Origin: an uncultured Bdellovibrionales bacterium
Lineage (GTDB): Bacteria; Myxococcota; XYA12-FULL-58-9; CAYXVF01
Direction: 5' to 3'
NCBI GenBank assembly: GCA_964468125.1
Contig: CAYXVF010000016.1
Location: forward strand, 5,538-69,537
DNA length: 64,000 bases
Shown here: one piece after another, positions 39,768 through 51,364 of the stretch
Layout: each line of letters opens with the position of its first letter
How positions within the stretch are numbered: position 1 is the stretch's first letter
The notes under the pieces: model-generated
The model's input: the letters and a program-made list of their open reading frames with translations, nothing else
Told to the model about the DNA's origin: nothing
Databases searched by the model: none
Made by a program: the position numbers and the translations under genes

Positions 39768-41461
39768 GGCGGCTGGCGCATCTCTTCGAGGCCTTGGACC
39801 AGACGACCTCCACCAACGCGAAGGTCGATCACCTCGTCGATTACTTCTCCTCGACTCCCCCGGAAGACGCGGCTTGGACTGTTTTCTTTTTGACGGGCCG
39901 CCGCATGAAGCGACTGATCGGGTCGCGACAACTTCGCGCCTGGGTCGTTGGCGCCTGCGATTTGCCCGAGTGGCTCGTCAATGAATGTTACTCGGTGGTG
40001 GGGGACATCGCGGAGACGGTCGCTCTGCTGCTCGAGAACGACCGAGACACGGGCGAGGACGTGCCGCTCAACGCCTGGATGCGAGAGCGTATCGAGCCCT
40101 TGCGGCATCGGGATGAGCACTTTCAGCAGGAGTGCATCGTCGGTTGGTGGCGCGTACTCCCTACGCGAGAGATCTTCATCCTCAACAAGCTCCTCACCGG
40201 CGGTTTTCGCGTTGGGGTGTCGAAGACCCTCGTCGTGCGCGCCCTCGCGCGGGTGGCTTCGGTGGAACCTGCGACGGTTCAGCACCGTCTCATGGGACGC
40301 TGGACGCCGAGCGCGGAAGGTTTTTTGCGCATACTCTCTGACGACACGAGCGACGTCGATAGCTCGAAGCCCTATCCGTACTTCCTTGCCTCACCGCTGG
40401 AACGGGAGGTGGAAGAGTTGGGTCCCCGCGCGGACTGGGCGGCCGAGTGGAAGTGGGACGGAATTCGCTCGCAGCTGGTGGTCCGGGACGGGCAGGTTTT
40501 CTTCTGGTCCCGCGGCGAAGAGCTCGTCACCGAGCGCTATCCGGAGGTGAGCGAGGAACATGGCGTGCGGGACGGGACCGTGCTCGACGGCGAGATCCTC
40601 GCCTATCGTGACGGACCCCTGCCCTTCGCCGAGCTGCAGCGGCGAATCGGTCGCAAGACGGTCAGCGACGCCCTCTTGGATGATGTGCCCGTCGCCTTCA
40701 TGGCCTACGACGTGTTGGAGCACGAGGGACGTGACATTCGGGCAGAGCCGTTGAATGTCCGGCGCCGCGTCCTCGAATCGATCGTCGGGGCGTCGGGCCC
40801 GGCGATTGTGCTCTCGCCTCTGGTGGCAGGCGAGGGCTGGGAAGAGCTCGCGCGCCTCAGGGCCGAGTCGAGAGAGCGACGGGTGGAGGGCTTGATGCTC
40901 AAGCGCTGGAGCTCGCCCTACCGAGCAGGCCGAAAACGCGGCGACTGGTGGAAGTGGAAGATCGAGCCCTTCAGCATCGACGCGGTCATGGTCTACGCCC
41001 AGGCGGGACACGGGAAGCGAGCGAACCTCTACACGGACTACACCTTCGCAGTCTGGCAGGACGGCGAGCTGACCCCGGTGGCCAAAGCCTACTCGGGGCT
41101 CGACAACGAAGAGATCCGAAAGCTCGACCGCTGGATCCGAAAGAACACCGTCGAGAAGTTCGGTCCCGTCCGAAGCGTGACGCCCGCGCAGGTCTTCGAG
41201 ATCGCCTTCGAGGGGTTGCAGGCTTCGTCCCGCCACAAGTCCGGGGTGGCGCTGCGGTTTCCGCGTATCGCGCGCTGGCGTCAGGACAAGCGGATCGAAG
41301 AGGCGGACACGCTCGAGCAGCTCCAGGCGCTCTTGAAGATCGAGGGCGAGGCGGCGGTGGCCGCGAAGGGGAGGGAGGAGCTGCCGCGGACGGGCAAACG
41401 ACGTCGGCGAAAACCTCGAGGCCCAGAGCAGCTCGACCTGTTCCTGGAGGCCGAGCGTTGA
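39764..41461 (+). CDS. ATP-dependent DNA ligase (LigC-type, Lhr-associated)
   Basis: 565 aa. Adenylation motif I EWKWDGIR. OB-fold region. Start overlaps the exonuclease stop. Confidence 0.85.
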   Translation: MRRLAHLFEALDQTTSTNAKVDHLVDYFSSTPPEDAAWTVFFLTGRRMKRLIGSRQLRAWVVGACDLPEWLVNECYSVVGDIAETVALLLENDRDTGEDVPLNAWMRERIEPLRHRDEHFQQECIVGWWRVLPTREIFILNKLLTGGFRVGVSKTLVVRALARVASVEPATVQHRLMGRWTPSAEGFLRILSDDTSDVDSSKPYPYFLASPLEREVEELGPRADWAAEWKWDGIRSQLVVRDGQVFFWSRGEELVTERYPEVSEEHGVRDGTVLDGEILAYRDGPLPFAELQRRIGRKTVSDALLDDVPVAFMAYDVLEHEGRDIRAEPLNVRRRVLESIVGASGPAIVLSPLVAGEGWEELARLRAESRERRVEGLMLKRWSSPYRAGRKRGDWWKWKIEPFSIDAVMVYAQAGHGKRANLYTDYTFAVWQDGELTPVAKAYSGLDNEEIRKLDRWIRKNTVEKFGPVRSVTPAQVFEIAFEGLQASSRHKSGVALRFPRIARWRQDKRIEEADTLEQLQALLKIEGEAAVAAKGREELPRTGKRRRRKPRGPEQLDLFLEAER

Positions 41462-43962
41462 GCGGGAAGGAGGCACGTCGCGCGGCGATCCGCGCCCGGC
41501 TAAAGCGCAAGCCGACGCTGCCCGTGCGCGCGCCCGTCGCGAAGGACGGTCGAGCGGTCGTGGAGGGTTGGTTTCGGAGCCTTGGCTACGCCCCCCATCC
41601 CTTTCAAGTCGAGGCATGGGATGCTTTTGCGCGCGGTGAGAGCGGACTGATTCAGGTCCCCACGGGCTCCGGCAAGACCTACGCCGCCTATCTCGGCGCG
41701 CTCGCGGAGATCTTGGAGGCCGAAGAGGAGGGCCTGAAAATTCTCTACATCACGCCGCTGCGTGCGGTCACCCGTGACGTGGAGCTCGCCCTCCGACGGC
41801 CCGTGGAGGAGCTCGAGCTTCCCTTGCGCGTCGAGTCTCGCACCGGCGATACGAGCCAATCGACGCGCGCGCGCCAGAAGATGCGCATGCCTGACGTGCT
41901 CGTCACTACGCCGGAGTCGCTCGCTCTGCTCCTGACCTACGGGGACGGGGTGGAGCGCTTCTCCGCGCTGCGAGCGGTGATTGTCGATGAGTGGCATGAG
42001 CTCCTCGCAACCAAGCGCGGCGCCTTACTCGAGCTGTCGCTCTCACGGGTGCGGGCGCACGCTCCCCGGGTTCAGACCTGGGCGCTCTCGGCTACACTCC
42101 GAAATCTCGAGGAAGCGGCGCAGGCCGCGGTGGGTATGGGCCTCGAGCCGCGGGTGATCCGCGGGCGGATCGAGCGCCCGATCGACGTGCAGACCCTCCT
42201 CCCTGACGATCGCGAACGCCTGCCGTGGGCCGGGCATCTGGGTCTGAGCATGCTCGACGTCGTCCTCGATTATCTGGACCCGGAGCACCCGACGCTCCTG
42301 TTCACGAACGTGCGTTCCCAGGCCGAGCGTTGGTACCAAGCGATCGTCGAAGCGCGACCCGAGTGGTCCGAGCTGCTGGCCCTGCACCACGGCTCCCTCG
42401 ACCGGGAGGAGCGCGAGCGCGTGGAGGAGGGTCTGAAGTGCGGCGCGCTTCGCATTGTCGTGTGTACGAGCTCCCTCGACCTCGGCGTCGACTTCGCACC
42501 CATCGAGCGCACGATTCAGCTCGGCTCGATCAAAGGGGTGGCCCGAATCCTTCAGCGCGCGGGGCGCAGCGCTCACCGCCCCGGCGCTACGGCCCGTGTC
42601 GCTTGCGTCCCGACCCATGCGTTTGAGCTGATTGAAGTCGCCGCGGCGAAGATGGCGATCGCGCTCGGTGAAATCGAGGGGCGAAAGCCTCAGAACAAGC
42701 CACTCGATGTCCTGGCCCAACATCTCGTGACCTGCGCGCTCGGCGGAGGATTCACCCGTGAGTCGATCACTGAGGAGGTCCGGAGTGCCTATGGGTTTCG
42801 TACGCTCACGGACGAAGAGCTCGAGTGGACCCTCGAGCTCGTGACCGTTGGCGGACCCACGCTTAGGGCCTATGAGGAGTATCAGCGGGTCCGCGTGTAC
42901 GAGGATCGCTATCTCGCCCGCGACAAGAAGGTTGCAACCAGCCACCGACTCTCCATCGGAACCATCGTTGCCGACGCTGCCATTCAGTTGCGTTACAAGA
43001 GCGGTCGGGTGATCGGAACGATCGAAGAGAACTTCATCGCCAAGCTGAATCCGGGTGAGAAGTTCCTCTTTGCTGGAAAAGCGCTCGAGCTCTTGGAGCT
43101 GAAGAACCTCGACGCCTATGTGAAGACTGCTCGAGGGCAGGTCACTTTCACGCCCCGGTGGGCGGGGGGGCGCTTGCCGTTGTCCGACACGTTGTCGTTC
43201 TCCGTCCGTCGGGCGCTCGACGAGGCCTCTAGAGGTGGCTTCGAGGGCGTGGAAATGGACCGTGCGCGGGAGCTGCTCGAGACGCAAGCTCGACACTCGC
43301 ACGTACCGCGCTTGAACGAGGTGCTCTTCGAGGTCTGCCGCACGCGCGAAGGTCAGCATCTCTTCGTCTTTCCTTTCGACGGGCGGGCGGTGCACGAAGG
43401 CCTGGCGGCGGTGTTGGCGCTTCGGCTCGGGCGCGAAGCGCCCGGAACCTTCTCCATCGCGGTGAATGACTACGGATTGGAGCTCCTCCACCCGGACGAG
43501 TACGACTACTCGAGCCGACTCACGGACGCCCTTTTTGACCCGGAGACGCTCGCGGAGGATGCACTACAGAGCATGAACGTGAGCCAGCTCGCGAAGCGTC
43601 AGTTTCGTGAGATCGCCCGCGTTGCGGGTCTCATCGTTCAGCCCTACCCCGGGGCGCGGCGCAGCTTGAAGCAGCTACAGGCGAGCAGCTCGTTGATTTA
43701 CGACGTGTTCGAGCGCTACGACCCTGAGAATCTGCTTCTGGCCCAGGCGCGTCGCGAGGTGCTCGAGCACTACTTCGAGCAGAGCCGTCTGGGCGAGACG
43801 CTGCGCCGACTTCGGAGCGATTCGCGGGTGGTACGCGAGGTCCAGCACCCGACGCCGCTCGGTTTGCCGCTCGTGATCGAACGCGTGCGCAACCAGCTCT
43901 CCACCGAATCCATCGAGGACCGGATCGCGCGCATGAAGCGCCAGTGGGCGGAGATCGCTTGA
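41458..43962 (+). CDS. Ligase-associated DNA damage response DEXH-box helicase (Lhr-like)
   Basis: TTG 41458 overlapping the ligase TGA (alternative GTG at about 41524). Walker A PTGSGKT, DEWH box, helicase C motifs (QRAGRSAHRPG). About 830 aa. Confidence 0.8.
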   Translation: MSGKEARRAAIRARLKRKPTLPVRAPVAKDGRAVVEGWFRSLGYAPHPFQVEAWDAFARGESGLIQVPTGSGKTYAAYLGALAEILEAEEEGLKILYITPLRAVTRDVELALRRPVEELELPLRVESRTGDTSQSTRARQKMRMPDVLVTTPESLALLLTYGDGVERFSALRAVIVDEWHELLATKRGALLELSLSRVRAHAPRVQTWALSATLRNLEEAAQAAVGMGLEPRVIRGRIERPIDVQTLLPDDRERLPWAGHLGLSMLDVVLDYLDPEHPTLLFTNVRSQAERWYQAIVEARPEWSELLALHHGSLDREERERVEEGLKCGALRIVVCTSSLDLGVDFAPIERTIQLGSIKGVARILQRAGRSAHRPGATARVACVPTHAFELIEVAAAKMAIALGEIEGRKPQNKPLDVLAQHLVTCALGGGFTRESITEEVRSAYGFRTLTDEELEWTLELVTVGGPTLRAYEEYQRVRVYEDRYLARDKKVATSHRLSIGTIVADAAIQLRYKSGRVIGTIEENFIAKLNPGEKFLFAGKALELLELKNLDAYVKTARGQVTFTPRWAGGRLPLSDTLSFSVRRALDEASRGGFEGVEMDRARELLETQARHSHVPRLNEVLFEVCRTREGQHLFVFPFDGRAVHEGLAAVLALRLGREAPGTFSIAVNDYGLELLHPDEYDYSSRLTDALFDPETLAEDALQSMNVSQLAKRQFREIARVAGLIVQPYPGARRSLKQLQASSSLIYDVFERYDPENLLLAQARREVLEHYFEQSRLGETLRRLRSDSRVVREVQHPTPLGLPLVIERVRNQLSTESIEDRIARMKRQWAEIA

Positions 43963-46814: not shown

Positions 46815-47584
46815 TCCTCCAAAATCATCTCGAAATAGTCGTGCGACAGCAGACGCCGCTGCACGGTGTAGAAAGACACGACGACCGCCGGCGTTGCGGC
46901 GGTCTCTTCCAAGACCAAGGGATCGGGCATCGCACCGAAGTCGACGCCGTCAAACAGGTGCCGCTCGGGGCGGAACGGCTCGGTGGTGGAAAAGCGAAGC
47001 ACGACCCGTCGCGCCCCGCTCTCCGCCACCTCGACCTCGAAGGGCACCCCGACGAGCTTGCGGTCCGCGGGAGCCACCACGTGCACCTCGAAGGGCACGC
47101 TCTGGCCATCACGGGTCGCGCGTCCACGGAGGTGGATCGAAAGCCCGAGACGCGCGTCGTCGCCGGCTAGCCCGTCTTCCGTCCCGAAGGTGGAAAACGT
47201 GACGTCCAGGGCGTCGTACGTCGTCGCGAGCAGGACCGCTTCGCCGATCGACTCCTCCGCCAGGAAATCCACGACGAAGCGACCCGGCAGCACGCCGAGC
47301 GTATCGCCGCTCTGCACGTGACCGGGATGTGCGTGTGCGCTCGGCACGAGCCAATCGCTGACCTGTTCGAGCCACGCCGTCTCGCGCGCCCCGTAGCTCA
47401 GAAACTCGAAGTCACTGAAGCTCATCGTCACCGCTTCGAGCTCGACATTGAACCCGAGATCGGTCGATGCGACCGAGTTCAGCAATTCGGCCTGCACCGG
47501 TACGGTCACCTCGGCGACGTCCGAGCCGCCCCCGCACGCGCACGAAAGCACGGCGAGGAAGGCGGCATGCCTTCCCTTCTTCAT
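46811..47584 (-). CDS. Lipoprotein (His-containing, unknown function)
   Basis: GGAGA ribosome-binding site then ATG 47584. Lipobox VLSCAC|G. HAHPGH motif. Stop overlaps the downstream lipoprotein start. Confidence 0.5.
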   Translation of the reverse strand: MKKGRHAAFLAVLSCACGGGSDVAEVTVPVQAELLNSVASTDLGFNVELEAVTMSFSDFEFLSYGARETAWLEQVSDWLVPSAHAHPGHVQSGDTLGVLPGRFVVDFLAEESIGEAVLLATTYDALDVTFSTFGTEDGLAGDDARLGLSIHLRGRATRDGQSVPFEVHVVAPADRKLVGVPFEVEVAESGARRVVLRFSTTEPFRPERHLFDGVDFGAMPDPLVLEETAATPAVVVSFYTVQRRLLSHDYFEMILEE

Positions 47585-47780
47585 CGCAATTCTCCACCGG
47601 GCCCCATTCAAAGCCTCGCCAGAGCGTGCGCACCATCACGCACGAAGCCGAGGACCTTCGATCGGGCCTATGAGTGTCTAGGCAGATGCAGACGCGCCTG
47701 CGTCAATGAGACGCGGCCGCTCTGAGGATCGCGCGAGCAGTCGAAGACTCGTCCTGCGGGAGGGGCGATTAACGCTCTCA

Positions 47781-48374
47781 TCAGGAGAAACCAATCGTCC
47801 GCGGCAACCCTCTAAGGCCATAGGAGGCGGGCGGCGCGCGCGGCGCAGTCGCCAAGTCGAGCTCAAACGGAGGTGCCGACCGAGCCACCGGCCGCGGCGG
47901 TTCGGCGAGCAGGGTCGCGATGCCGGCCTCGTGAACGAACGGCGCGGCCGTGAAGCTGAGAAGCGTGAAGTGGCTGGTGCTGTCGCCGGTATGACCGGTG
48001 GACGAGCGCTCGTCCGTCTCAGGCGCGTCGTGCTCGGGGTGCGCTTCCCGGTCGGTGTCCGTCGGCGCGGGCGGGGCGGCTCGTTGCTCCGGCCTCGGCT
48101 CGGAAGCGGGGAGCGTGGCGGAGTTGCGACCCGCGTCCGGTTGGTGGTCGCGCGGCGCCGCGTTTCGATGCGCGGGCGGCGGCTCGTGCGAATCGGCGGG
48201 CGGTGGCGCCTCTCGGTGATACACCACGCGCCCATCCGGGAGGTGGGTATGCCGGCCCTGCAGCGCGTGGGTCAGCACGTGCGCGAGCGGGCTTGCCACC
48301 AGGTGGCCCGCGCCGAAAGCCGCCGCAAGCGCAAATAAAAAGCCTAGACGGCGCGTCGAGGGTCGTCGTGTCAT
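47781..48374 (-). CDS. Possible His/Pro-rich low-complexity secreted protein
   Basis: 197 aa. N-terminal hydrophobic segment (LGFLFALAAAFGAGHLVA). High third-position GC in this frame. Overlapping plus-strand ORFs are Arg-rich shadow frames. Low confidence. Confidence 0.3.
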   Translation of the reverse strand: MTRRPSTRRLGFLFALAAAFGAGHLVASPLAHVLTHALQGRHTHLPDGRVVYHREAPPPADSHEPPPAHRNAAPRDHQPDAGRNSATLPASEPRPEQRAAPPAPTDTDREAHPEHDAPETDERSSTGHTGDSTSHFTLLSFTAAPFVHEAGIATLLAEPPRPVARSAPPFELDLATAPRAPPASYGLRGLPRTIGFS

Positions 48375-48484
48375 CCCGCAAGAATGGGAATAACTCGGGC
48401 AGCCTCATCACGACAAGCGCTCTCGTCGCCGCGCCTGATCTCGGTCAAGTCTACTGGATAGAAGGCGTGCGGGCGGGAAACCGC

Positions 48485-48512
48485 GAAAGGGGGAGCTATG
48501 CGGCATCCGAAG
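48485..48512. repeat. 28-bp direct repeat, copy A (gaaagggggagctatgcGgcatccgaag)
   Basis: Matches 49256-49283 at 27/28 positions. Contains GGGGGAG and ATG (48498). Confidence 0.85.
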
Positions 48513-48956
48513 TCACTCTTCGAGCTCTTCGACGTCCGCTGCGTCTTTGGTTCGGCCAGTCGCCTTTTTGTTGCGAAGGAGCTCCGACCGCCCGAGGAAC
48601 CGCACGGGGATTCCGTCGAGCACGCCTGCTTCACTTCCGTTGATGGCATCGTCGAAGGACACCGCGGTGATTCCGGTGAGCAGGTCGATTCTCTGGGGGG
48701 GCAGACCGAGCTGAATGATCTGGTCGGGCTTTTCGAAGTCTTCCGCGGTGAGGCCCGTCTCCTCAAACCCGAAGGCGCTCAGTACGTCGACGATCTTCCG
48801 GCCACTCTCGGCCGTTGGCCGCACAAAAAAATCGATATCGCCCGTGTAGCGGGGGTAGCCGTGGTAGGCGACCGCGTGGGCGCCGACGATGACGTACTCA
48901 ACGCCGGCCGAGTTCAACAACTCGACAAACTCGCGCAAATCCTTGCTGAGCTTCAT
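48513..48956 (-). CDS. Pol-beta-superfamily nucleotidyltransferase (AbiEii/MNT-like small NTase)
   Basis: 147 aa. NTase motif hG...GDIDFFV (VGAHAVAYHGYPRYTGDIDFFV). C-terminal K..D..D..L (RTKDAADVEELEE). Stop codon (48513-48515) immediately abuts repeat copy A. Confidence 0.65.
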   Translation of the reverse strand: MKLSKDLREFVELLNSAGVEYVIVGAHAVAYHGYPRYTGDIDFFVRPTAESGRKIVDVLSAFGFEETGLTAEDFEKPDQIIQLGLPPQRIDLLTGITAVSFDDAINGSEAGVLDGIPVRFLGRSELLRNKKATGRTKDAADVEELEE

Positions 48957-49089
48957 CGTCCTGTCCGCGATGGCTGGCGACCAGCTCGAGCAAAATGTCG
49001 AGCCGTTGCACCGGGGTCAGCGACCGATAGTACCGTCGGTCGGCGCGTCTGGCCAGGTCGTGGCTGGAAAAGACCTGAATACGGCGCAT
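48898..49089 (-). CDS. Small partner ORF of the NTase cassette (possible antitoxin-like protein)
   Basis: 63 aa (MRRIQVFSSHDLARRADRRYYRSLTPVQRLDILLELVASH...). 3' end overlaps the NTase start by about 59 nt. Helical and charged. No recognised motif. Confidence 0.35.
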   Translation of the reverse strand: MRRIQVFSSHDLARRADRRYYRSLTPVQRLDILLELVASHRGQDDEAQQGFARVCRVVELGRR

Positions 49090-49253
49090 GGCTCCACAAT
49101 AAGCGGACGCGGCCCATCGAGCAAACGAACCGCTCGCCGGGCCGTGAGCGGGCGCATCGGCTCCACACGCCACGTGATCCAGATCAGGCGGACCCGTGAC
49201 CTGGGCATTGGAGAACAACCCCCCTCTTCGGCGACCTAGAAGGGCCGCGAGCC

Positions 49254-50675
49254 ATGAAAGGGGGAGCTATGCAGCATCCGAAGGAGCGCGTGGTCGCGAT
49301 TGTGGGCGGCGGATTGTCCGGACTCGCGATTGCGGAGGCCATTCAGCACCGTTCCCAGGGCGAGGCGGTGCGGCCGATCGTCCTCGAGGCGGAATCCGCG
49401 CCCGGCGGCAAGGTCCGCTCCGAGCGTCAGGGGGGCTTCGTGGTGGAAACCGGTCCCCACGGGTTTCTCGGCCGGGAGGTCAAAGTGTTCGAGCTGATCG
49501 AGCGCTTGGGACTCAACGGCGAAATGGTCCGCGCGGACCCGGCGAGTGCGAAACGCTTCCTCGTGAGTCGCGGCAAGCTGCGCGAGGTCAAGATGTCGCC
49601 CTTCGGCTTCATGACGAGTGGGTTGCTGTCTCCCTGGGGACGTCTCCGGGTCGTGATGGAAGCCTTCGTGAAGGCGGACTCGAAGGCGCACGAGAGCGTC
49701 GCAGACTTCGCGAAGCGGCGGATCGGCAAGGAAGCCGCGAACGTGATGGTCGACGCGATGGTCACGGGGATCTACGGCGGCGACCCGGAGGACCTCGCAC
49801 TCGAAGCGGCGTTCCCGCGCATGGTGGAGCTCGAAGAAAACTACGGCTCGCTCATTCGCGCGCAATTCGCTCTCGCCAAAGAGCGGCGCGGCGAGACCGA
49901 GGACGAGAAGGAGAGGCGGCAAAACCTGCACAGCTTCCGCAATGGTCTTCAGACCTTGGTCGATGGACTCGTCGGTGCGGTCCCGGACGTTCGGACTTCC
50001 GCGTCGGTGGATCGCATCGTGCCCACTCGCGACGGGTTCGAGCTGATGGGCAGCTTCGGCAACCTGCGCGCGGACTCGGTCGTGTCCTGTGTGCCCGCGA
50101 GCGCGCTCGGAAAGATGCTCGAGGGAGCGGGTCCCCAAGCCCTCGTCCAGCGGGCAACCGACCACCGCTTTGCGCCGGTGAACGTCGTGGTTCTCGGTTT
50201 CAACGCCAAGGACATTCGTCGGAAACTCAATGGCTTTGGTTACTTGGCGCCGCATTCGGAGGGCCGGGACCTGCTCGGATGCGTGTGGGGTGACTCCGTG
50301 TTCCCGCAACATGCGCCGGAGGGACAGGTGCTGTTGCGCTGCATGATGGGAGGCATGCGCAACGCCGGTCTCACCACCTTGGACGACGGGGAGCTGGTCG
50401 ATCGCTGCCGCACGGAGCTGGTGCAAATGATCGGTCTCGACCCGGAGGCGCTGCCGACGATGCAAGCGATCTTCCGCTGGCCCGAAGGGATCCCGCAGTA
50501 CGACGCGGAGCACTCGGCACGTCTGATGGCCGCGCGCGAGCTCGAGCACGGGCTTCCGGGGTTGGTGATCGCCGGGAATTCCTACACCGGAGTCGCGATG
50601 ATCGAGTGTATCGCGAATGCGGAAAAGGCCGCGGAACAGGCGCTCCGGGACATCGCGACCGCCGCTGCGGCGTGA
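49254..50675 (+). CDS. Protoporphyrinogen/coproporphyrinogen oxidase (HemY/CgoX family, FAD-dependent)
   Basis: 473 aa. VAIVGGGLSGLAIA dinucleotide motif. Amine-oxidase-type fold. Start is ATG 49254 or 49269. Confidence 0.75.
   Translation: MKGGAMQHPKERVVAIVGGGLSGLAIAEAIQHRSQGEAVRPIVLEAESAPGGKVRSERQGGFVVETGPHGFLGREVKVFELIERLGLNGEMVRADPASAKRFLVSRGKLREVKMSPFGFMTSGLLSPWGRLRVVMEAFVKADSKAHESVADFAKRRIGKEAANVMVDAMVTGIYGGDPEDLALEAAFPRMVELEENYGSLIRAQFALAKERRGETEDEKERRQNLHSFRNGLQTLVDGLVGAVPDVRTSASVDRIVPTRDGFELMGSFGNLRADSVVSCVPASALGKMLEGAGPQALVQRATDHRFAPVNVVVLGFNAKDIRRKLNGFGYLAPHSEGRDLLGCVWGDSVFPQHAPEGQVLLRCMMGGMRNAGLTTLDDGELVDRCRTELVQMIGLDPEALPTMQAIFRWPEGIPQYDAEHSARLMAARELEHGLPGLVIAGNSYTGVAMIECIANAEKAAEQALRDIATAAAA
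49256..49283. repeat. 28-bp direct repeat, copy B (gaaagggggagctatgcAgcatccgaag)
   Basis: Contains the functional ribosome-binding site and start region of the protoporphyrinogen oxidase-like gene. Confidence 0.85.
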
Positions 50676-50719: not shown

Positions 50720-51364
50720 ATGGTTGAGGCAGCGGTCGAGGTCGAGCTCGCATCCGAGAAGGTCCTGTTGTTGCCGGGGCGCGCGATGTTCTGGCCGAAA
50801 CGGCGGGTTCTGTTCGTTGCGGACCTGCACTGGGGCAAACGCGAGGCGTTCGTCGTGGAGGGCGTCCCTCTTCCGGATGGGGTACTACGCGACGACCTGT
50901 CTCGGCTCGAGAACCTGATTCAGGCGCATTCGGTCGAGCGGGTCGTCGTTCTAGGCGATCTGATTCACAACCGCGCGGGAATCACGGAGGCGGTGGTGGA
51001 GCAGGTCGCCGCGTTTCGCGCCCGGGGACCGGAGATGTGGCTCATCCGCGGCAACCACGACCGCCACCTGCCGCGTCTGCCTGCGTGCTGGCGGATCGAG
51101 GAGCACCTCGATCGATGCGAACCGCCGTTCGTCTACACCCATGTGCCACGCGACGATCCGGGCGGCTACGTACTCGCCGGCCACGTGCACCCGGCCTTGC
51201 GGCTACGCACCCGCGGGGACGGCCTGCGCGTTCCCTGTTTTCACATCGGGCCGAGCTTCGCGGTGCTTCCCGCGTTCAGCGCCTTCACCGGCGGCGCGGT
51301 GGTCACGCCCAAGCCCGGCGAACGCGCCTTCGCGATCGCGGGCGATCGGGTGATCGAGGTCTAG
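50720..51364 (+). CDS. pdeM: Ligase-associated DNA damage response endonuclease PdeM (metallophosphoesterase)
   Basis: 214 aa. FVADLHWGK, VVVLGDLIH, GNHD, GHVHPA motifs. Confidence 0.75.
   Translation: MVEAAVEVELASEKVLLLPGRAMFWPKRRVLFVADLHWGKREAFVVEGVPLPDGVLRDDLSRLENLIQAHSVERVVVLGDLIHNRAGITEAVVEQVAAFRARGPEMWLIRGNHDRHLPRLPACWRIEEHLDRCEPPFVYTHVPRDDPGGYVLAGHVHPALRLRTRGDGLRVPCFHIGPSFAVLPAFSAFTGGAVVTPKPGERAFAIAGDRVIEV

Follow-up and report, generated by a model that had tools for sequence, protein, structure and literature searches.

A putative MenAT1-like toxin-antitoxin cassette between two copies of the hemY 5′ end in an uncultured Bdellovibrionales bacterium

How does a pair of small genes, accompanied by no mobility gene, come to lie between two copies of the start of a haem-synthesis gene, and what do the two genes encode? 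The question is raised by a 64,000-nt stretch of DNA from an uncultured Bdellovibrionales bacterium (the whole stretch is referred to here as the window), in which an insert of 743 nt (48513-49255) stands between two nearly identical sequences, copy A and copy B, the second of which belongs to hemY, the gene for protoporphyrinogen oxidase (Table 1). The insert carries only two real open reading frames (ORFs), one for a nucleotidyltransferase (NTase) and one for a small protein encoded upstream of it, and no gene for a transposase, an integrase or any other mobility function. The two genes form a conserved module that resembles those of toxin-antitoxin (TA) type. The best explanation of the locus as a whole, to which we give a probability of about 0.6, is that a MenAT1-like TA module lies beside hemY together with a recombination scar of the long-target-duplication kind.

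The repeat and the insert

The 28-nt copies A (GAAAGGGGGAGCTATGCGGCATCCGAAG) and B (...GCAGCATCC...) are identical at 27 of the 28 positions, the sole difference being at position 17 of the 28-mer (G in copy A, A in copy B). They are the only matches to this sequence at up to 3 mismatches within the 64-kb window, and not one of 100 dinucleotide-preserving shuffles of the window yielded a 28-mer match, in agreement with the preliminary description of this DNA, made by reading the letters, in which the repeats had been reported. The similarity continues 14 nt leftward, 48471-48512 and 49242-49283 being identical at 35 of 42 positions (83%); measured against the published 30-bp cut-off for long target duplication, a repeat of 28 nt at 96% or of 42 nt at 83% is borderline. 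The same arrangement with both copies was found in Logan contigs from two sequencing runs, SRR7048222 (100% identical) and SRR7048221 (99.8%, 8 single-nucleotide differences in 3.6 kb), and is common to two strains of the species.

Other claims of the preliminary description on the organization of the locus also held. Copy B is the functional start of hemY, as indicated by the TIGR00562 match of the 468-aa product. The ORF starting in copy A is only a shadow, with codon-position GC contents of the antisense type (0.76/0.49/0.62 for the first, second and third positions vs 0.65/0.39/0.78 for the NTase) and no family match in profile searches. The TGA stop of the NTase on the opposite strand (48513-48515) directly adjoins copy A, and its start overlaps the small upstream ORF out of frame by 59 nt (48898-48956). 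The cassette separates hemY from whatever preceded copy A, is foreign to the haem locus, and is bracketed by the duplication of the hemY 5′ end; its GC content is slightly lower (0.61-0.63) than that of the flanks (0.64-0.76). No terminal inverted repeats, as used to recognize an insertion sequence, a miniature inverted-repeat element or a transposon, were found at the direct-repeat boundaries. The intergenic stretch to the left of copy A contains, at 48431-48440, the 10-mer GCGCCTGATC, which in inverted complement recurs in the spacer between the cassette and hemY. The only inverted pair flanking the cassette (48432-48450 and 49172-49190, 16 of 19 positions) does not line up with the direct repeats and is of borderline score (23, vs a shuffle maximum of 23-26).

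Table 1. Features of the hemY locus in the window, followed by the flanking repeats at other loci of the cassette family (L-numbers denote loci)
Feature	Window position	Strand	Length, identity	Description
Intergenic stretch	48375..48470			between the gene for a 197-aa protein (47781-48374, -) and the A-type leader
Copy A flank	48471..48484	+	14 nt	GGGCGGGAAACCGC
Copy A	48485..48512	+	28 nt	orphan hemY Shine-Dalgarno sequence, ATG and codons 2-5, with Q2 changed to R; adjoins the NTase stop
Shadow ORF	48498..49199	+		not a gene; begins within copy A and runs antisense to the cassette
NTase, putative toxin	48513..48956	-	147 aa	DUF2204, MenT1-like; PF09970, MenT1 profile match, fold
Small ORF, putative antitoxin	48898..49089	-	63 aa	MRRIQVFSSHDLARRADRRYYRSLTPVQRLDILLELV...; homologues upstream of NTases; coding-type GC at third codon positions
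Spacer between small ORF and hemY	49090..49216			common to L005 at ~72-75% identity
Patch directly upstream of copy B	49217..49255		39 nt	final 14 nt (49242-49255) form the degenerate portion of the 42-nt repeat
Copy B	49256..49283	+	28 nt	working hemY Shine-Dalgarno sequence, ATG (49269) and codons 2-5
hemY	49269..50675	+	468 aa	protoporphyrinogen oxidase; TIGR00562 269 bits, cut-off 98; NCBI-called product 468 aa
L020 repeat			118 nt, 95%	38 nt of 5′ untranslated region with GAGGAGG, GTG start and 26 codons of the downstream membrane-protein gene
L082 repeat			28 nt, 96%	ATG and 7 codons of the downstream sigma-54 regulator
L088 repeat			49 nt	
L071 repeat			39 nt	terminator hairpin
L078 repeat			107 nt	resembles a multi-copy intergenic element; weaker case
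L044 repeat			29 nt	resembles a multi-copy intergenic element; weaker case

The nucleotidyltransferase and its small partner

The only Pfam family to which the NTase scored above threshold is PF09970 (DUF2204; 22.1 bits, cut-off 20.3, residues 5-145), and many of its homologues are pre-annotated as PF09970 or PF19502; other NTase-family matches were sub-threshold, with a weak one to Aminoglyc_resit (E 0.003). A profile of 36 family members retrieved, as the sole convincing match in the PDB, MenT1 of Mycobacterium tuberculosis (Rv0078A; 8an4/8an5/8rr5) with an E-value of 1.8e-7, query residues 5-146 being aligned with chain residues 5-156 of 8an4. The alignment-based AlphaFold model of the NTase (pLDDT 92.9) gave the same answer in Foldseek, where the first-ranked PDB entry was 8an5_B, MenT1 in the MenAT1 complex (TM 0.70, E 5e-5), followed by TM1012 (TM 0.65) and by LnuA and ANT(2'')-Ia (TM 0.56-0.61). 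Residues T38, D40, D42, K130 and D138 of the NTase align with T39, D41, D43, K137 and D152 of MenT1, and among the 36 homologues no change is seen at T38, D40 or D138, while K130 is kept in at least 90%. The toxin MenT1 is a nucleotidyltransferase that extends tRNA 3′ ends with CMP; its activity requires D41, K137 and D152, and T39 is the site of auto-phosphorylation induced by the antitoxin (PMC10435456, PMC11375011). The antitoxin MenA1 is a helical protein of 68 aa, the gene for which stands upstream of that for MenT1 (PMC10435456).

The small protein of the window is conserved together with the enzyme. Single-sequence tblastn placed a homologue of the small ORF directly upstream of the NTase in at least 55 of 82 loci. 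Of 83 loci compared for the overlap between the two genes, 55 have one of 59 nt and 17 have one of 53 nt (72 in all). The small-protein family, with the consensus ...F.SFEEAE.AD..YY.SLTP..RLDLLLEL...RLERVYRV..L, comprises 229 representative clusters, nearly all of stand-alone proteins of 60-110 aa and none fused to an NTase; a profile of 23 small ORFs gave neither a Pfam family nor a PDB match (nothing below E 0.3). More than 2000 proteins of the searched collection are homologous to the NTase, the best of them other than itself at 66% identity, and its relatives are spread over at least 480 species genomes of many phyla, including Acidobacteriota, Myxococcota, Planctomycetota, Verrucomicrobiota, Bacteroidota, Proteobacteria, Spirochaetota and Chloroflexota. 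A few copies are plasmid-borne, and no relatives were found in the IMG/VR viral contigs. As a separate observation, in two long proteins, P0368 (631 aa) and P0379 (808 aa), the motif ADxxYYxSLTPxxRLxxLxEL at the core of the small ORF is repeated 8-10 times in tandem; the Pfam matches of these two proteins look spurious.

Since the profile, the fold, the conserved MenT1 residues and the small upstream partner agree, the 743-bp insert is most plausibly a MenAT1-like TA module. The 147-aa enzyme would most likely add nucleotides to tRNA 3′ ends and thereby block charging, as MenT1 does, and the 63-aa helical protein would most likely neutralize it by binding, possibly with induced auto-phosphorylation of Thr38. 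The likeness to MenAT1 (Rv0078A/Rv0078B) extends to the gene order, with a gene for a helical partner of ~65 aa immediately upstream, and to a distribution that suggests horizontal transfer. The differences are also clear: the identity to MenT1 is 15-19%, the NTase of the window is shorter by about 50 residues (147 vs 196 aa) and belongs to DUF2204 and not to PF08843, and the fixed out-of-frame overlap of 59 or 53 nt is a feature of the cassette family of the window.

Two other known TA types had been brought into comparison in the preliminary description, in which the cassette was said to recall MNT or AbiEii modules; the TA-like character stands, supported by the conserved pair and the MenT1 match, while the assignment to these types fails on the partner. 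The AbiEi/AbiEii (type IV) systems and MenAT3/MenAT4 share the NTase superfamily and the same motif logic, but their antitoxins are COG5340-type proteins of about 200-300 aa with a winged helix-turn-helix, whereas the partner in the window has 63 aa and no detected DNA-binding domain; this type was rejected, with no COG5340-like partner and with neither PF08843 nor PADLOC lending support. The MNT/HEPN (type VII) systems likewise form a two-gene module with a minimal Pol-beta-type NTase, but there the NTase is the antitoxin and a HEPN RNase the toxin, whereas in the window there is no HEPN domain match and the NTase stands downstream of a partner of only 63 aa. The profile searches that had been proposed for the two proteins thus succeeded for the NTase (DUF2204, MenT1) and were negative for HEPN, AbiEi, PADLOC and, for the small protein, Pfam.

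The enzyme may alternatively be no toxin at all, but an NTase acting on small molecules or antibiotics (ANT(2'')/Lnu-like) or in housekeeping, with the small protein as an accessory or regulatory factor and the repeat as an incidental local rearrangement. The weak Aminoglyc_resit match and the presence of LnuA and ANT(2'')-Ia among the fold matches would agree with such a role, and so would TM1012 (2ewr/2fcl/4hx0), a putative nucleotidyltransferase of Thermotoga maritima of unknown function, which resembles the NTase in size and fold and matches it as well as MenT1 does; its sequence similarity is marginal (E 0.04). We regard the alternative as unlikely, because the best matches by both profile and fold are to MenT1 with the Lys and Asp of motif IV kept, and because an obligatory small overlapping upstream gene, a patchy distribution, the joint decay of both genes in the relative described below and the TA modules nearby suit TA biology better.

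Age of the arrangement and origin of the scar

The only close relative of HemY in the searched collections is P0121, 94% identical, encoded on the Logan contig L005 of a sister species; the next-best protein in a collection of 5.8 billion is 61% identical, and no close relatives were found in the genome and metagenome contig collections. L005 keeps the synteny downstream of hemY and carries upstream of it, in the same position, a decayed copy of the same cassette. Its NTase remnant covers residues 3-27 and 31-80, with a frameshifting 7-nt deletion, and has lost the C-terminal 67 residues, while a single deletion of 112 nt (window 48950-49061) took the NTase start together with codons ~10-47 of the small ORF. 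The spacer between cassette and hemY is collinear in both, with exactly 39 nt from GGAGAAC to the repeat; within this distance the patch at window 49217-49255 and its equal-length counterpart at L005 2872-2910 match at 17 of 39 positions. The hemY genes differ at 179 of 469 third positions and at 109 of 258 four-fold sites, and the NTase remnant to a similar extent (18 of 50 and 5 of 19, respectively); the neutral divergence is 0.42 per four-fold site (Jukes-Cantor distance 0.62). Because L005 shares the remnant, the 39-nt spacing and the hemY-like divergence, the adjacency of cassette and hemY dates back roughly to the divergence of the two species.

The orphan copy A gives a different impression of age. 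L005 carries a single repeat copy, at hemY, and it is copy A with its flank, not the working leader of the window, that resembles this copy: window 48470-48512 and L005 2897-2939 are identical at 41 of 43 positions, and all 14 positions of the copy A flank agree with the L005 sequence directly upstream of its hemY repeat. The hemY-proximal flank of the window differs at 5 of 14 positions both from the flank of copy A and from L005, and from the latter also at 16 of the next 25. Had copy A drifted neutrally over this time, its 28 nt should have accumulated about 8.7 changes; only 1 is seen (P(≤1) = 0.002). Copy A therefore looks young, as suggested by 41/43 identity with L005 in spite of a neutral divergence of 0.42. 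It should be one of three things: a sequence under selection, for which no function is seen, a piece recently orphaned from a constrained leader, or an import. The preliminary description had taken the insertion as recent; this applies, by appearance, to copy A and not to the linkage of cassette and hemY, which the decayed copy in the same place in L005 marks as old. Likewise, the alignment with relatives that it had called for did reveal a single repeat copy, but with a decayed cassette beside it and not a true empty site.

Several details of the L005 comparison are recorded here in their own right. A stretch of 73 nt (window 48877-48949, L005 2650-2722), the part read in two frames by the small ORF and the NTase, is 100% identical, and is intact in L005 although both cassette genes are dead there. 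The first 11 nt of the 39-nt patch agree by eye at 9 of 11 positions with the reverse complement of L005, a possible micro-inversion. The 10-nt inverted pair GATCAGGYGG/CCRCCTGATC occurs at 48431-48440 and 49181-49190 of the window and at 2838-2847 and 2887-2896 of L005, and co-varies (C:G in the window, T:A in L005) with borderline significance; in L005 the arms lie 39 nt apart in the spacer, while in the window the good partner is found across the cassette, 30 nt to the left of the flank of copy A. At 825-2349, upstream of its decayed NTase cassette, L005 contains two PIN-type TA modules, one of a PIN gene with a 144-aa partner (-) and one of RHH and PIN genes (+). As L005 holds these two further TA-type modules, the region upstream of hemY looks like a spot of TA accumulation.

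With regard to origin, an att site or a product of slippage explains the repeats less well than does a recombination scar of the kind named insertion with long, variable target duplication. An att-like or slippage-mediated origin had been proposed in the preliminary description; the insert has no recombinase, the repeats are of variable length and unrelated among family members, and no att logic of the integrase type is evident. Insertion with long target duplication has been described for restriction-modification (RM) gene complexes (Nobusato et al. 2000, cited in PMC2654758; Furuta et al. 2010, PMC2853133), in which host sequences of 30-420 bp are repeated, mobility genes are missing, the target is single-copy in other strains, and the mechanism was left open (PMC2853133). 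The hemY locus resembles these cases in having a selfish or addictive module without mobility genes, flanked by repeats of host sequence that differ in length between cases and, for the 28-mer, have no further copy in the 64 kb; it differs in that the module is a TA pair, the repeat is 28 nt (42 nt degenerate), and a strict empty site was not found at hemY. Among the papers listed for this term in the full-text library (25 of 32), none applies it to a TA module.

The route with the fewest extra assumptions is a one-sided homologous recombination, or homology-facilitated illegitimate recombination, although we put it at somewhat less than an even chance. Two hemY alleles would have diverged in separate lineages, one with the cassette next to hemY and a B-type leader, the other cassette-free, in the order 197-aa gene, intergenic stretch, A-type leader and hemY, the junction of which would read GGGCGGGAAACCGCGAAAGGGGGAGCTATGC[AG]GCATCCGAAGGAGCGCGTGG. 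One end of the transferred segment would have been joined by homologous recombination within hemY and the other by an illegitimate join of the NTase stop to the position right after codon 5 of the recipient hemY, leaving the orphaned 5′ end (copy A) directly before the cassette and the intact one (copy B) beyond it. The 28-mer repeat would then be the overlap of the donor and recipient hemY starts, and the weak similarity to its left would be ordinary divergence of orthologous leaders; no mobility function encoded by the element would be needed. Along hemY itself the four-fold divergence by thirds (0.48, 0.375 and 0.41) gave no signal of a crossover step.

Illegitimate recombination facilitated by homology is said to have been described in natural transformation by de Vries and Wackernagel in 2002 and by Prudhomme et al. 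in 2002. A one-sided anchor with an illegitimate join inside the homology would give exactly the product seen in the window. The reported outcomes of this process are usually deletions of recipient DNA and not duplications, whereas the arrangement in the window would, under this model, be a duplication. A tandem duplication, which would have left a second cassette remnant to the left of copy A, was considered and rejected, no direct similarity above that of shuffles being found there.

Among the other origins, an ancestral de novo insertion with a true target-site duplication of at least 42 nt, formed by staggered breaks that were filled in, comes next, and is improbable in our judgement. Copy A would then have been kept by a function of its own (as a decoy, a regulatory site or a 3′ element of the TA transcript) and lost from L005 by deletion. 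The presence of the cassette at the same position in L005, the sharpness of both repeat boundaries on the cassette side, and the equality of the L005 leader with copy A plus its flank, as if from one duplicated sequence, all agree with it. It would require, however, purifying selection on an orphan ribosome-binding site and ATG equal to that on a real leader (41/43 vs a neutral divergence of 42%), while the flank of the working leader has itself diverged at 5 of 14 positions and, further out, at 16 of 25, and no RNA family or structure was detected at copy A. Less probable still is a site-specific integration in which the repeats are the attL and attR cores, the integrase is supplied in trans and the cassette is mobilized in cis: direct repeats of 20-60 nt around inserts are typical of att integration, and it is well known that elements can integrate into the end of a gene and restore the gene in doing so (discussed in PMC2853133), but the insert has no recombinase, the repeats at other family loci have no common core, the cassette boundaries differ from locus to locus, and viral contigs of IMG/VR hold no relatives. 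Chance similarity or an assembly artefact, for which only the metagenome-assembled nature of the source contig speaks, is practically negligible, since the shuffles gave no match and two further assemblies from two runs hold both copies.

Scars at other loci and the setting of hemY

The 74 other loci of the family were scanned for the best ungapped direct repeat with one copy 100-600 nt upstream of the NTase start and the second within 300 nt after the NTase stop, at a score cut-off of ≥18, with the same geometry shifted by 1.5-2.3 kb (330 positions) as a control. Repeats at this score were found in 6 of the 74 cassettes vs 5 of the 330 shifted controls (Fisher p = 0.007), and shuffled controls reached scores of 9-11. 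The repeat-flanked units measure 598-983 nt; the repeats are unrelated host sequences of 24-118 nt with sharp ends and without a common core, and the cassette boundaries vary from 0 to 114 nt past the stop and from 0 to 290 nt before the small ORF.

In two of these cases, L020 and L082, the repeat duplicates the start of the adjacent gene, as at hemY. Homologues (174 aa) of the gene downstream of the L020 cassette confirm that copy 2 is its native start; no empty site was found for this locus, the homologues of the downstream gene being at most 86% identical and their upstream DNA not alignable. The L082 cassette is an insertion, because in five family-level relatives (65-79% aa identity) the upstream gene and the regulator lie 10-60 nt apart with a single start. 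Its orphan leader reads ATG ACC ATC CAG GAA ATA AAA CAA TGA, and the TGA overlaps the ATG of the small ORF, so that the cassette appears to have captured the translation start of the host gene. A third, more diverged copy of the regulator start, heading a 146-aa ORF, stands 456 nt further upstream.

The three sigma-54 regulator 5′ ends of L082 (2388-2445, 2844-2871 and 3442-3499) show decreasing similarity, and the first ~12 residues of the 146-aa ORF at the oldest copy derive from the regulator, as if insertions had followed one another at a single gene start and, possibly, a new gene had been built on a duplicated one. In a relative of this locus, L131, a different small gene occupies the same intergenic site between direct repeats of ~50 nt (507-560 and 950-1000); its product, by eye, looks like a four-helix-bundle protein of the '23S rRNA intervening sequence' type. 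Beside another NTase cassette, at L025 3586-5165, a DUF433/DUF5615-like TA pair (assigned by eye) lies between 300-nt direct repeats of 89% identity, which are duplicated copies of a third small gene pair. The scar phenomenon may be general to TA modules, since some of the matches at control positions are TA modules between long repeats.

Against the explanation preferred here, a MenAT1-like TA module with a long-target-duplication scar, a number of points have to be set. On the side of the module, the NTase reaches only 14.3 bits with PF08843 (AbiEii; cut-off 22.5, E 0.039), PADLOC and NCBIfam gave no match for either cassette protein, and no similarity of the small protein to MenA1 was detected even though the MenAT1 complex is in the PDB; its single-sequence model is all-helical at low confidence (pLDDT 67), too weak for a structure search. 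Toxicity, neutralization and tRNA modification would be properties of this subfamily by analogy with MenAT1, and no member of the subfamily was found described in the searched literature. On the side of the scar, flanking repeats occur in only ~8% of the family members, those of L044, L078 and L071 are hairpins or multi-copy intergenic elements and not clean duplications, and TA-rich islands are also where the repeat-bearing control positions are found. No cassette-free allele or true empty site was found for the hemY locus, with one close relative available; the proposed recombination is a reconstruction from two genomes, and it leaves the first arrival of the cassette at hemY unexplained.

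As to the setting of hemY, the intergenic stretch left of copy A is presumed to be its former upstream region, and the spacer between the small ORF and the patch a divergent promoter region for cassette and hemY. A promoter upstream of copy A would now be 771 nt further from hemY and face the cassette antisense, and hemY would be transcribed either from the 180-nt divergent spacer that it shares with the cassette or by read-through; the displacement of the hemY promoter, proposed in the preliminary description, is plausible. A scan for the sigma-70 consensus, which is uninformative in a GC-rich host, gave no promoter, Rfam gave no RNA family over 47500-50000, and two weak terminator-like hairpins do not exceed what shuffles yield. 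The 39-nt patch adds an upstream in-frame ATG at 49254 without a Shine-Dalgarno sequence. More distant HemY homologues (59-61% identity, loci L006-L010) have different N-termini and are encoded in hemE-hemY operons, in which hemY overlaps the stop of hemE (uroporphyrinogen decarboxylase); as hemE is nearby in neither the window nor L005, hemY was uncoupled from it in the lineage of the window. Apart from these, an Lhr-type helicase (DEAD, WH_Lhr, DEAD_assoc) at 40948-43962 and a 214-aa calcineurin-like phosphoesterase at 50720-51364, just downstream of hemY, recall parts of ligase-associated DNA-damage-response gene sets.

Significance of the module

What is new here is a MenT-like subfamily, marked by a small partner of a new kind and by a constant overlap of the two genes, for which we infer the function and the route of movement. 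The class of MenT tRNA-nucleotidyltransferase toxins would thereby be extended to a shorter subfamily, with a new family of small antitoxins and the fixed 59-nt overlap, and for the host the event would mean that the 5′ region of an essential haem-synthesis gene was re-wired. Chromosomal TA modules are very widespread, and how a recombinase-free gene pair of 0.6-1 kb moves is unexplained, just as long target duplication has been an unexplained observation for RM systems since 2000; a compact and widespread cassette family with repeat-flanked cases in several phyla offers a tractable set for the question of one-sided recombination. We advance only tentatively, as a rather doubtful proposition, that the module is a TA family, the first so recognized, that spreads by long, variable target duplication, landing at or in the 5′ ends of host genes, where the duplication preserves the host gene and can lend a promoter and a ribosome-binding site to the cassette. 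If it is true that the process is specific, driven by the module or by a host pathway, and is not rare illegitimate recombination filtered by addiction, it would constitute a new mode of mobility for gene pairs without mobility genes. The flanking scars at some relatives of the module in other bacteria hint at how gene pairs of this kind spread.

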